Positions 42,001 through 51,000 of a stretch of 64,000 nt of DNA are shown here, piece after piece. How positions within the stretch are numbered: position 1 is the stretch's first letter; each line of letters opens with the position of its first letter. A program made the position numbers. The stretch lies in NCBI RefSeq assembly GCF_054482525.1, contig NZ_CM137006.1; one strand, given 5' to 3'.

Positions 42001-45000
42001 AAGGTGCAAACGGACAGCGACTTTGCCGATCAGGTCTGGAGCTACTTCGCGACCGGCACCCAGCTGCAGGAGCTGTATATTACCCCGTCCATGCTGAACA
42101 AGGTGAAGTGGGATACGCTGGCGAAGGCTGCAAAATGGTCGAAGGAAAATGCCAGCGTGCTGGTTGATACCCACTGGATTGGCGGCGACCCAACGGCGCT
42201 TGCCGTGTACGGCTGGGCATCCTGGAGCAAAGACAAAGCCATTCTCGGTTTGCGCAACCCATCGGATAAGCCACAGGCCTACTATCTGGATTTGGCTAAG
42301 GATTTCGAAATACCGACAGGAGACGTGGCGCAGTTTAGTCTGAAAGCGGTATACGGCAGCAATAAAACCGTGCCCGTTGAGTATAAAAACGCGACGGTGA
42401 TTACGTTGCAGCCGCTGGAAACGCTGGTGTTTGAGGCGGTGCCCGTTAACTAAACGCTTGTCCCAATGAGCAGACCGGGTAAGGCGCAAGCGCCACCCGG
42501 CAAAACCGGCAGCAGGGGCTTATTCCCCCTGCTGTTCCAGCGCATACTTATACAACGCATTCTTCTTCACTCCGTGGATTTCTGCCGCCAACGCCGCCGC
42601 TTGCTTCAACGGCAGCTCAGCCTACAACAGCGCCAGCGTACGCAGCGCATCGGCGGGCAGTTCGTCATCCTGGGCTTTATGGCCTTCAATAATCAGCACC
42701 ATCTCGCCTTTGCGAGGGTTTTCATCTTCTTTGATCCACGCCAGCAGTTCGCCGACCGACGTGCCGTGGATGGTTCCCAGGCGGGTGTTCATCACATAAC
42801 GGTATAGGGCATCATTCAGCGGAGCCATTAACAGGCAGCACGCGTCAACCCAGTTGGAGAGTAACGCCGTCATTGGGTTATTTCTTTCCATAAAAATACG
42901 CAAACATGCCCCATACCTCCTGTTCCAACAGCTCAACCTTTCTTAATCATTGCCGAAATTGCGCCACAGTCATGAAACTTATCAAAACCAGTGGTGCCTT
43001 TGATATATTCAGTAACCAGAGTACCAATAATCTTAACCGTTTCTTTGTTCGTTGTGATAAAGCCCAGTGGCATCGTTACAGGCAATATTTCGGGTTGAGA
43101 AATATGATAGATAACGGCAGATAACTCATCCTCAAGATGAAGGATCTCAACATTACCATCTAACAGCCCCTCAACTAGTCCTTTAGCGTACTCATGGAAT
43201 TGCCCAAGTTCATACTTCCACTGTCTGGCAACCCGAGCATCAGCTGCATCCCGGACAGGTACGTACAGCACCGGTTTATACAGCTGCTTATCCTTCGTAG
43301 CCGACTTGCTAAGAAAATTGCTCAGGCTTGAGATAAATCGAATGCTTTTTGACCAGTAGGGATCTGATGGTGCCACCCAGATGAACGGGCTACCTCCATA
43401 ATCAGTTTTATCTCTGATACGCTGATTGAGCGCTGGTGCCAGAGCTTTCTGCAGCTTTTCCCAGTTGTTTTTAGAATAAACCGGACCTAAAAAAGTCGTT
43501 CTGCCTGAGGACGAGTATTCTTCCAGTGCTTGCATATCTTTGATAAACAACGGATTAAGTCGATTCGTTTTAGAGTCAAACAGCTTAAGCGTAAGGTCAT
43601 CGTTAATGGATTGCATGGCCTTAAAAATACTCATGGTATTGTTATGCCGTGATAACCTGGCTATCTCAACAGCCATTAACTCATGAACACATTCCGAACT
43701 ATTTAACTGTTCATAGTCTTCACGCTCGACAGCCTTACCATCGCTATCCATTTTAAATTCCGTTGTTAAACGGAGTGGTATTTGCCGCAGCTTATTAACA
43801 GAATTAACGGTATAGATAGAAGGTTGTTCTTTTCCGACCTGAACCTGCAGGTGAGACAGGTAACCTTTATCCAGGATTTGATTAAACTGGTATTGAAAGT
43901 GCTTCTCAACCAGTTTCTCACTTTGAGAAATGTTGTTGTCATCAACCTTTAATGTTACCCCTCCCCTCCAGTGGTCCTGAAAAGCCTGGTTGCTGAAGCA
44001 ACTAAATGTGGCTAAATCAAAGGATAAGGTACAGCCACTGTCCTGAATAGTTGAAAGATGCGGTATCTCGCCAACCTCTGAAAAATAGCCATTTGATTTG
44101 TCTGTTAAGGCCAGTCTGCCGTCTGAGGAGAGCGTCAATTCGCCACGCTGCACAAGATCGGAAATCGCCTCCTCTGTCTCACGGTGGGTCAGGCCGAAAT
44201 AGGTTGCTATTTGTGCTTTGCTCATCGAAGCTACATGAACAAGTCTCAGCACAAACTCCCGGATAAATGGCAGCCCCTTCTGGGAAACATAGGAAAACTG
44301 AATGTTAAACCTCTGTGCTGGCAGCAGGAAGTCAACCTCATGATAGGTAACTTTGTTATCAGATATCATTTCTTTTTGCCTCCCTGCTGAGCAGAGAGGA
44401 ACCTGTATCCAGCTTCCTGACCTCGCTCAGCCATATAACTTACAACGTAGCCTAATGGCAATTCTTTATTGTTTCCCTTCCAGATATCGGCATTACCCAC
44501 AATCAACAGTCGATCCATTGCGCGTGACATCGCGACATTTATACGGTTTGGAACGCGTAAGAAACCTGGGCTATGCTGCTTATCCGAACGCGTCAGTGAC
44601 AGGATAATGATCCGATTTTCCTTTCCCTGATAACTGTCAACAGTGTCAATTTTAACAATGTCCTTAAATCCCTCGCTCCAGATTTCCTGATTGAATTTCT
44701 GACGGAGTAACCGCTTTTGTTCGGCATACATACATATCACGCCGATAGCGGCTTCATCTTTGCTAACAAGTTTTGAAAGCTTAGCGACAAATTCTTCATT
44801 CTCTGACACCTGTTTAAGAACAGAAATAATCTCGTCAGCTTCACATCGGTTGTAAATGCTTGTTCCGCGATCTTCAAGATGATGTGCTCGGTGGCCCTGA
44901 TTAGCAGTATCAAGCCAGGTTACAACGCTACGTAACGCTTCCGGAGCTTGCTGATAGACATCCGGAATTGCCCGTACTCCATTCAGAAGCTTCCCGTCAT

Positions 45001-48000: not shown

Positions 48001-51000
48001 ATCCTTCGCCAGGCTTCCGCTTATTTTGCGAAGGCGGAGTTCGACCGCCTCTGGAAAAAATGATGCCACTGCTGGATAAGCTGCGTGAGCAGTACGGGGT
48101 CGGACCGCTATGCAGCGAACTGCATATTGCCCCGTCAACGTATTACCACTGTCAGCAACAGCGACATCATCCGGATAAACGCAGTGCCCGTGCGCAGCGC
48201 GATGACTGGCTGAAGAAAGAGATACAGCGCGTATACGATGAAAATCATCAGGTGTACGGTGTGCGTAAAGTCTGGCGTCAGTTGTTACGGGAAGGTATCA
48301 GAGTGGCCAGATGCACTGTGGCACGTCTCATGGCGGTTATGGGACTTGCCGGTGTTCTCCGGGGTAAAAAGGTCCGTACGACCATCAGCCGGAAAGCCGT
48401 TGCCGCAGGCGACCGCGTAAACCGTCAGTTCGTGGCAGAACGACCTGACCAGCTGTGGGTGGCTGATTTTACTTACGTCAGCACATGGCGGGGCTTCGTC
48501 TATGTGGCGTTCATCATTGATGTGTTTGCCGGATACATCGTGGGGTGGCGGGTCTCATCGTCTATGGAAACGACATTCGTGCTGGATGCTCTGGAGCAGG
48601 CGTTATGGGCCCGTCAACCGTCCGGCACAGTCCATCACAGTGATAAAGGTTCTCAGTATGTATCGCTGGCCTACACACAGCGGCTTAAGGAAGCCGGATT
48701 ACTGGCATCAACAGGAAGTACTGGTGACTCGTATGACAACGCGATGGCGGAGAGCATCAATGGCCTTTACAAAGCGGAGGTAATACACCGTAAGAGCTGG
48801 AAAAACCGGACAGAAGTGGAGCTGGCCACACTCACGTGGGTGGACTGGTATAACAATCGACGATTGCTGGAAAGGCTGGGCCATATCCCACCGGCAGAAG
48901 CAGAAAAAGCTTATTATGCTTCCATCGGAAACGATGATCTGGCAGCCTGAGTTCACAGATAAAACACTCTCCAGGAAACCCGGGGCGGTTCAGATCGTAT
49001 CCCTGTCCCCCAACATTCAGCCAAGCCTTCACGAGCCTTCCTTTCGAGATATAGACTTCTTTGTCGACTGTTTCGACCTGAAACTGAAAGCCATCGTCTT
49101 CCGGGTATTGACGAGCGTGATTGATAGCATGTCGGTAAGGGTCAAGCTCAGTATCATCAAATGTTGGAATATCCTTGCCAGCAGGTTCGGCTTGTTTCAG
49201 GGCATCAAAGAATTCTGTTGCAGAAGTGAATTTTGCGGCAACGGCATCCCGTAATACAGATGAATACCAGTGCTGGCTGTTTAGCATGTTGTCCTGTACT
49301 TTCTCCAGACTCTTTGGCGACATGCGCATACCGCTAAATAAGTGCCAGGCGACAAGGCCCAGAGTATGAACATCTTGCTGAAAAGGCGTAAGCTCGCCCT
49401 TATCAAGCATGTCTTTTACGTGGACTGCACCTACGGATAAAAGCTTACGGTAATCGCCAACCGTTCCGGCTGGCTGGTGGTAAGCCGAAATAAAGTTCGA
49501 AAGAGCAACTTCTTTTGAAGGTGAAATCCACAGACTGTGATCGGCGACATCCCTGTGCGCAATTTTCATCTCATGGAGATCACTAAACTTTGCAATGAGC
49601 AGTTTCACCACATTCAAGCGGTCCATATCAGAAAAGTTCTTACCATATTTTCCGATAAACTCATTAAACCGGACATGACCCGGCGGAACTTCGTAGACTT
49701 CGCTATACTCGGCCGTCACCTCGTCTTTCTGAAAACTCGTCAAAGACCTGAGACAGTGGTTATACAGGTCACGATTCTGGTGATTGATGTGCTGTAACAC
49801 TTCGCGCTCACGTGAAACAATCTGAGCTCGTCCTTCCGGGGTATTCGCTTTCGTTCCCGTTATATTTCTAAAATTCCATACTCTGAGTAGCGCTTCGCTG
49901 TTCGTTGATATCTCAGATTTTGCCAGATATTCTCGATACACCTTTTTAGGATGTTCGAAAATCATATCATTAGCTTCATAGCCATTAACTCTCAAGGCTT
50001 TTGGTGCCGTCTGAGGCCCTAGGAACAAATCATCGAAAAGATGGAAATCCTTGTTAAGAACCTTGGTAGCTGGGTGCGGTTTGAAATAGTTATTGAAGCT
50101 CCCGCGATCGGCAAACTTCAGGAAATCTTTTAACGAGATCGTATGGCGCCGTTGTTCCTCCGGCAGCGCGCTGAAATCTGCATTGCCGGTCATCACAACA
50201 AAAAAATGAACAATCGGGATATAGCCTTTGTTCGTAAAACGGTCTACCAGACGCTTGAGTTTTTTGTCCAGCATGAATTTTTTGCTACGAGTCACGCTTA
50301 CTGGCGAGCGCCCCATGTTCTTATCACCTTTAAACCAAGTATCTCCGCGTGCGGTTACAGGCTGATGGTTCCAGTCTTTCAGTTCAACAATGATCACGTT
50401 GCAGTGTGTTACAATAACTAAATCGAATTCCCCCTCTTTTTTTGCCTCAACAAATCGAAAACCTGCATAACCTTTCCAAGGGAACATTTCATTGCCGATA
50501 AAACCATAGCTTTTTAGCTGCTCACTAATTGAACCGCTACGGAAAGGCTTGTCAGGCTTAGATACGTTGACTGAAAAAGCAGCTTTTATTTTCTCGATAG
50601 CCAATACTTCCTGTTCTTGTAAGCCACCATCCCACATTTCTACTTCCAACGGTGTTCTCCTTAAATTTCAGTAAAAATAAGGTCATTTATTCTGGTCAAT
50701 ATGGCAGGTTTCGATGTTTATAGTTCTGAATACTATGGTGTTTTACACGTTCATTCTGGTTATTATACGTAGAAAAGAATTTATCGGGCAACGCCGAGAT
50801 GACGCGGCCCCGTTAAACCGTGTAGTGGTAGATGATGAGATCAGATACAGGGATCAACTGACGGTGAGCGCAGTCCCCACATTTTATCCGGAGTTTACCG
50901 CTATTCCCGGCTGCCATTCGTTAGCACAGGCCCGCAAGTACCCTGATTTGCCGCTGGTTTTGCTTTCCCATCGAAGGGCCCATACATCATCACGCCCGCG

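Follow-up and report, generated by a model that had tools for sequence, protein, structure and literature searches.

A Mokosh type I anti-phage locus split by an IS3-family insertion

We analyzed a stretch of 64,000 nucleotides from contig NZ_CM137006.1 (assembly GCF_054482525.1), referred to below as the window, in which an insertion sequence (IS) splits a giant minus-strand open reading frame (ORF) that is followed by a gene for a protein of 478 amino acids (aa). Our results show, with a probability that we put at about 0.93, that this locus is a copy of the named and validated anti-phage system Mokosh type I (mkoA-mkoB), of the subtype found in Escherichia coli SEC470, and that the IS has inactivated it in this genome; the system is thereby one that is already known. 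The initial annotation had presented the pair as an undescribed architecture belonging to no named system, and had itself pointed to a match with an already-named system as the outcome that would speak against this. Full-length PADLOC matches of both proteins and near-identity to the verified SEC470 system gave that match, with Mokosh type I. The proposed role in anti-phage defence was right in kind, as the near-identical SEC470 system is verified, and the copy is disrupted in this genome as had been stated.

Identity of the locus

The locus consists of the following features:
48993-50637, minus strand: mkoA 5' fragment, codons 1-548, with NERD, kinase-like domain 1 and, of kinase domain 2, the N-lobe including K537
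47683-48992, plus strand: IS3-family element (IS629-like), intact, 1310 bp, inserted after mkoA codon 548 and transcribed opposite to mkoA
47737-48063, plus strand: IS orfA, intact transposase ORF overlapping orfB
48060-48950, plus strand: IS orfB, intact transposase ORF overlapping orfA
44366-47682, minus strand: mkoA 3' fragment, codons 549-1652 and the stop, with the kinase-2 catalytic loop, a middle region of unknown fold and the helicase
42933-44369, minus strand: mkoB, 478 aa, winged helix and phospholipase D (PLD)-superfamily fold

The restored MkoA matched the PADLOC model PDLC03921 almost from end to end (2206 bits at E = 0, covering positions 5-1603 of the 1607 in the profile), as did MkoB with PDLC03923 (1.9e-151, positions 4-452 of 454). 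The verified system of E. coli SEC470, SG199 'Mokosh type I', has a 1652-aa MkoA labelled 'Kinase-Helicase' (MWDGGLQEQEVLAIEKIK..., IMG 2720391838) and a 478-aa MkoB labelled 'HTH', for helix-turn-helix (MISDNKVTYHE..., IMG 2720391839) (Millman et al. 2022, bioRxiv 10.1101/2022.05.11.491447, supplement). Compared with these proteins over the 399 N-terminal residues that the supplement prints, the window MkoA is 92.5% and the window MkoB 98.2% identical. The same preprint describes Mokosh as a Upf1-like RNA helicase with a PLD nuclease; type I, encoded by two genes, has a Ser/Thr-kinase domain in addition. Its authors report protection of E. coli by three Mokosh systems and loss of defence upon mutation of the ATP site and the PLD site, and phage resistance is reported for the SEC470 orthologue (bioRxiv 10.1101/2022.05.11.491447). 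A 2023 review already lists NERD (PF08378) among the domains of Mokosh type I (PMC10952713).

The hallmarks of type I were recovered here, namely a Upf1-like helicase with an intact ATP site, a Ser/Thr kinase, an adjacent mkoB with a PLD fold, full-length hidden Markov model matches and orthology to a verified member. Only the HxK(x)4D motif is missing from MkoB, and the founding SEC470 member, labelled 'HTH' and nothing else, is the same in this respect; the absence of the His-Lys-Asp (HKD) motif is a property of the subtype and no ground for exclusion from Mokosh type I. In RefSeq the two go under 'AAA domain-containing protein' and 'hypothetical protein', names that conceal the system, so that those who read the sequence alone will keep rediscovering it.

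The insertion and the restored reading frame

Minus-strand ORFs were found at 48832-50649, 44366-47557 (open back to 47682) and 42933-44369. The termini of the IS are inverted repeats (TGAACCGCCCCGGG...), a direct 3-bp repeat, GAT, lies on both of its sides (47680-47682 and 48993-48995), and copies in E. coli that are 99.6-99.8% identical to it are called 'IS3 family transposase' in RefSeq. When the IS and one copy of GAT were excised in silico, the frame was open over the junction with no stop (...NVGGQGYD/PSINFQVLKFLKQ..., the join NVGGQGYD/PSINFQVLK that the initial annotation had written). Counted mechanically from the TTG at 50649 the restored mkoA has 1656 codons, and from the ATG at 50637 (MWDGG...), the start used in RefSeq and by Millman et al., it encodes 1652 aa; its stop overlaps the ATG of mkoB (ATGA). 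The initial annotation had thus given a correct account of the gene structure: one ORF of about 1656 codons split by a 1310-bp IS with a 3-bp duplication, and coupled as an operon to the 478-aa gene through the overlapping stop. All the motifs it quoted are present in the restored protein. In the interrupted state the 5' frame of mkoA continues into the IS, where it meets a stop at 48832, and the insertion site falls between the kinase-2 beta3 lysine and the kinase-2 catalytic loop.

The restored 1652-aa protein is WP_001333439.1 (1652/1652) and the 478-aa protein is WP_000622487.1 (478/478), both of them intact in E. coli TW10598, where the genes have the locus tags EXA01_RS04635/04630. Identity of this extent is beyond what chance can give, and since the restored proteins are identical to intact alleles, the IS is the sole lesion and a recent one. 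Uninterrupted homologues, which the initial annotation had proposed to look for, were found: 331 of the 5426 complete genomes of E. coli have the junction without insertion. The insertion itself was found in no complete RefSeq E. coli genome, all 332 matching records showing the uninterrupted junction. An exact 40-bp IS/mkoA junction pattern gave 0 matches in the GTDB species-representative genomes, and a search for the exact sequence of the truncated MkoA product of 601 aa returned no record. In four other strains (E686, E597, E118 and PEC011) an IS3-family element splits mkoA elsewhere, at about codon 955, and E. coli E686 (NZ_CP049198.1, 2035710-2048547) has another copy of that element just past mkoB. 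Within E. coli, IS elements have hit the Mokosh system repeatedly and independently, and such recurrent hits in mkoA could mean that carriage of the system costs fitness.

Domains of MkoA and MkoB

The domains lie as follows in the restored proteins and in the window:
50233-50481: NERD, MkoA residues 53-135 (Pfam, 1e-6)
49300-49830: kinase-like domain 1, MkoA residues ~270-446 (weak Pfam Pkinase match, 0.029)
from ~47434 (catalytic loop HGDIHPGN, then IDIPDF): kinase domain 2 (Pfam Pkinase match at MkoA residues 577-657, 1e-5)
44489-46123: Upf1-like helicase of superfamily 1B (SF1B; COG1112), MkoA residues 1068-1612 (Pfam AAA_11, 3.4e-38; AAA_12, 2.7e-42)
44091-44273: MarR-like winged helix, MkoB N-terminus, residues ~33-93
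42936-43652: PLD-superfamily fold without HxK(x)4D, MkoB C-terminus, residues ~240-478

The NERD, the two kinase-like domains and the SF1B helicase that the initial annotation had read from motifs were all recovered by Pfam, the first kinase-like domain weakly. Kinase-like domain 1 is also backed by the NERD-kinase module of PglW (PADLOC, 4.1e-27, residues 53-442) and by a PD-T4-6 kinase model (PADLOC, 6.8e-6, residues 339-436), and PD-T4-6 kinase models match the kinase-2 region as well, down to 8e-12. The solved structures closest to MkoA by sequence are Upf1/NAM7 (~1e-29), DNA2, IGHMBP2 and Sen1.

Conservation of the MkoA motifs was followed in 23 aligned full-length homologues (66-91% identity), all of which hold every domain in one chain of ~1650 aa. 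The NERD residues D72, E85 and K87 are invariant and form a PD-(D/E)xK signature (D...ExK), and the Walker A (G1090-T1097) and Walker B (DEAA, 1345-1348) motifs of the helicase are likewise invariant. The same holds for K537, H631-G632-D633, N638 and D652 of kinase domain 2, a complete kinase catalytic set, with which this domain is predicted to be active. In kinase-like domain 1, H361-R362-D363 is kept, S368 stands at the position of the catalytic-loop asparagine and S380-N-F replaces DFG; as the DFG aspartate and the asparagine are lost, this domain looks like a pseudokinase.

For MkoB, the Pfam search gave nothing significant and no PLDc, and sequence and profile searches of the PDB gave no meaningful match. 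It has more than 500 homologues in Gammaproteobacteria and Betaproteobacteria, and a precomputed Pfam domain is listed for none of them. Foldseek matched it to F13, bacterial PLD, NucT, FAM83, TrmB, Zucchini, Nuc and PLD3/4, a link to PLD that derives from the predicted structure alone. Comparison of the MkoB family with the partial MkoB of E. coli H10407 by hhalign showed no similarity. H-x-K occurs nowhere in the window MkoB, and HxK(x)4[DE] was found in the C-terminal domain of none of 34 homologues. FAM83 and TrmB, PLD-fold proteins without the HKD motif, are not known to be catalytic. Because the PLD fold is kept and the catalytic His-Lys-Asp motif is lost, the modelled MkoB of the SEC470 type is more likely a nucleic-acid-binding or regulatory pseudo-PLD partner.

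Two forms of Mokosh type I

MkoB proteins without HKD (~480 aa) adjoin a NERD-bearing MkoA of ~1652 aa in all three cases examined (E. coli, Hahella chejuensis and Cupriavidus). PLDc_2-positive MkoB proteins pair with an MkoA of 1153-1213 aa that has AAA_11/AAA_12 and no NERD in all four cases (Pseudomonas, Citrobacter, Burkholderia and Rhodobacter). The MkoB of H10407 also matches PLDc_2 (6e-9, ...GSHAKIIVCD...GSCN...), and no NERD was found in the part of its MkoA examined, residues 1-399. NERD is hence present exactly where HKD is absent, at 8 of the 8 loci examined, and the lengths of the paired PADLOC MkoA and MkoB models agree with this division (1607+454 vs 1112+610).

This pattern and the conserved D...ExK suggest, short of proof, that the NERD of MkoA and not MkoB is the nuclease in the SEC470 subtype. 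More tentatively, at somewhat under even odds, Mokosh type I may hold two mechanistically distinct subtypes, in which the long form would have a pseudo-PLD MkoB acting as a sensor or regulator (TrmB- or FAM83-like) and nuclease activity would have passed to a NERD that MkoA acquired together with a PglW-like kinase module. We did not find this proposal stated in the literature searched. The verified SEC470 subtype departs from the textbook picture of an RNA helicase plus a PLD nuclease, having a PLD fold without catalytic residues and an intact NERD motif in MkoA, and this anatomy points experimenters to the first residues for mutation.

State of the system and alternative readings

The insertion after codon 548 parts the NERD and kinase-like domain 1, together with the kinase-2 N-lobe, from the kinase-2 catalytic loop and the helicase. 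As full-length MkoA cannot be made from the split locus, the system is very probably dead. In an intact system of the SEC470 subtype the PD-(D/E)xK site of the MkoA NERD would cut, kinase domain 2 would be active beside a kinase-like domain 1 that is a pseudokinase, and MkoB would bind nucleic acid or regulate. Translation of mkoB is coupled to that of mkoA, and the pair is carried on a tyrosine-integrase island.

Several points weigh against this picture. Loss of function for this allele is read from the split itself, and the claim that NERD is the nuclease is based on motif conservation and only 8 loci. The AlphaFold2 model of MkoB is moderate overall, with a mean pLDDT (predicted local distance difference test) of 73.6, and E400, E408 and H422 of MkoB are invariant, which would be compatible with an unconventional active site. 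The construct that bore the PLD-site and ATP-site mutations is unspecified in the accessible parts of the preprint, and the SEC470 subtype may not have been the one mutated (bioRxiv 10.1101/2022.05.11.491447). Finally, a Mokosh type I protein resisted purification by others (bioRxiv 10.1101/2025.07.10.664194).

We attach almost no weight to the idea that the pair is a novel defence operon of an architecture not described before. The missing Pfam family of MkoB and the generic RefSeq names, which leave the system anonymous in ordinary annotation, would agree with it, but they are outweighed by the full-length PADLOC matches to MkoA and MkoB, by near-identity to the SEC470 system published in 2022 and by the NERD domain that has already been tabulated. 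Partial function of the IS-split locus is very improbable too. It would require that the 1063-aa ORF at 44366-47557, with part of kinase domain 2 and the helicase, is expressed from an outward IS promoter and works with MkoB, or that the fragment with NERD and kinase-like domain 1 works alone; both mkoA fragments are indeed still long open frames, and mkoB and the helicase part are free of other lesions. Yet NERD and K537 are cut off from the catalytic loop and the helicase, 23 of 23 homologues have all domains in one ~1650-aa chain, and the independent IS hits in other E. coli strains are annotated as pseudogenes.

The question of the nuclease is closer. That MkoB is the effector nuclease through a non-canonical site in its PLD fold, for which the invariant residues above would be candidates, with NERD serving only as a sensor or DNA-binding module, is unlikely although it deserves far more weight than the two previous alternatives. 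HxK(x)4D is in the C-terminal domain of no homologue, the motif-less FAM83 and TrmB are among the structural matches, and NERD with an intact D...ExK occurs exactly where HKD is lost, at all 8 loci. We therefore favor an inactivated Mokosh type I system of the SEC470 subtype in which NERD, and not MkoB, is the candidate nuclease.

Island and neighbourhood

The initial annotation had placed the pair as cargo of an element resembling P4 or a phage-inducible chromosomal island, and the integrase, AlpA, DUF3987 and YfjI neighbours, named from the RefSeq annotation of identical islands, agree with this, the island being degraded. Apart from the IS, positions 41051-62817 are 99-99.9% identical to the island of TW10598, and positions 20000-42000 are 100% identical to several E. 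coli chromosomes, including that of E-ge-1, which identifies the source of the window as E. coli. From the integrase side to mkoB the order is tyrosine integrase, 605-aa hypothetical protein, IS1 remnant, AlpA, DUF3987, YfjI-family protein, inovirus Gp2-type protein, a decayed primase/helicase pseudogene, mkoA and mkoB. The features of the island are:
51312-59386, minus strand: island backbone, after the RefSeq annotation of the 99-100% identical TW10598 and E-ge-1 islands
58184-59386: tyrosine integrase (NCBIfam integrase match)
56180-57997, plus strand: 605-aa ORF flanked by the IS1 remnant and the integrase, 'hypothetical protein' in the TW10598 and E-ge-1 islands
52696-54147: YfjI family
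51312-51875: Gp2-like
within the island: DUF3987, AlpA and IS1, as remnants

The 605-aa ORF at 56180-57997 is possibly another cargo gene, judged by its position beside the integrase. NCBIfam and PADLOC gave no match for the Gp2-like, YfjI-like, 605-aa or enterotoxin ORFs. The integrase abuts clpA, the serW locus in K-12; ARAGORN found no tRNA gene in the 64-kb window, and hence no candidate attachment tRNA. The spot in TW10598 equivalent to window positions 59400-60080 is annotated 'RtT sRNA' in RefSeq, and in E-ge-1 the same island lies beside ycdU instead, with two RtT copies. Directly downstream of mkoB is a 637-aa ORF (40540-42453, plus strand) that RefSeq calls 'enterotoxin'; it is intact here and in E-ge-1 and broken in TW10598 by insertions of IS66, IS21 and IS100.

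Other defence genes are present in the window. A type I restriction-modification system at 13375-21994 (HsdM 13375-15813, HsdS 15807-17147, HsdR 18899-21994) has strong PADLOC matches, as has the toxin-antitoxin defence pair DarT (17160-17816) and DarG (17801-18880) that lies between HsdS and HsdR. In E. coli E-ge-1 the annotation is the same for HsdS, DarT, DarG, HsdR and a portion of HsdM. A 250-aa ORF (11364-12116, minus strand) with an HNH-endonuclease-like N-terminus matched the PADLOC candidate-system protein PDC-M68A (6.6e-24) and effector models of the SAVED-HNH type from CBASS (cyclic-oligonucleotide-based anti-phage signalling system), and could be another defence gene of the region.

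The initial annotation had also proposed to see whether the two genes occur together in defence islands. The pair is adjacent in Hahella and in Cupriavidus, and the Hahella orthologue lies between Dnd genes and a large gene of N6-methyltransferase/restriction type (N6_Mtase, MmeI_Mtase, Eco57I). In Citrobacter freundii (CM133240.1, 8423-12099) a short-form Mokosh type I, with an MkoA of 1213 aa and a PLDc_2 MkoB, stands directly beside a CBASS-like operon of a patatin effector, a SMODS/CD-NTase and a DACNG/DACNH protein, a typical defence-island layout.

Comparison with known systems

The eukaryotic Upf1 and MOV10L1 helicases with Zucchini (PLD6) of the piRNA pathway are alike at the level of domains only, and the window MkoB is without the catalytic HKD of Zucchini. 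Nhi is a single-gene system that is not known to have kinase domains or a partner. As in MkoA, an N-terminal nuclease-type domain and an SF1 helicase are combined in one anti-phage protein in Nhi and Nhi-like systems, and NERD is listed for both Mokosh type I and Nhi (PMC10952713). No Nhi model was among the 25 best PADLOC hits, and membership of Nhi is rejected.

PglW, of phage growth limitation (Pgl) and bacteriophage exclusion (BREX) type 2, has a homologous N-terminal module of NERD and Ser/Thr kinase (MkoA residues 53-442 against profile positions 33-433, 4.1e-27). The match is limited to the first 433 of 1403 profile positions and nothing else is common to the two proteins. A BREX type 2 or Pgl system would have PglW together with PglX, PglY and PglZ; as the NERD-kinase module alone is shared and no BREX or Pgl match was found among the neighbours screened, membership is rejected.

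Mokosh type II (MkoC; YjhR-like in E. coli) shares the Upf1-like helicase, its PADLOC model matching MkoA residues 1337-1635 (6.6e-36). It differs in being a single polypeptide, helicase and PLD fused, with a canonical C-terminal PLD and no NERD or kinase, whereas the window has two genes and the MkoC model covers only the C-terminal part of the helicase. Closer is the Mokosh type I of enterotoxigenic E. coli H10407 (SG202; MkoA 1215 aa, MkoB 602 aa, 'HTH-PLD'), in which a gene for a kinase and Upf1-like helicase is likewise followed by an HTH partner. The window proteins are also hit by the models PDLC03920 (2e-130) and PDLC03922 (1e-13, in the N-terminal half alone). However, the H10407 MkoA is ~440 aa shorter and without NERD in its first 399 aa, and its MkoB is a Pfam PLDc_2 protein with HAK....D, whereas the window MkoB has the fold without the motif. 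Closest is Mokosh type I of SEC470 (SG199). The window differs from it by the IS in mkoA and by a few percent in the MkoA N-terminus, and shares with it the gene order, the lengths of 1652 and 478 aa and the PADLOC models.

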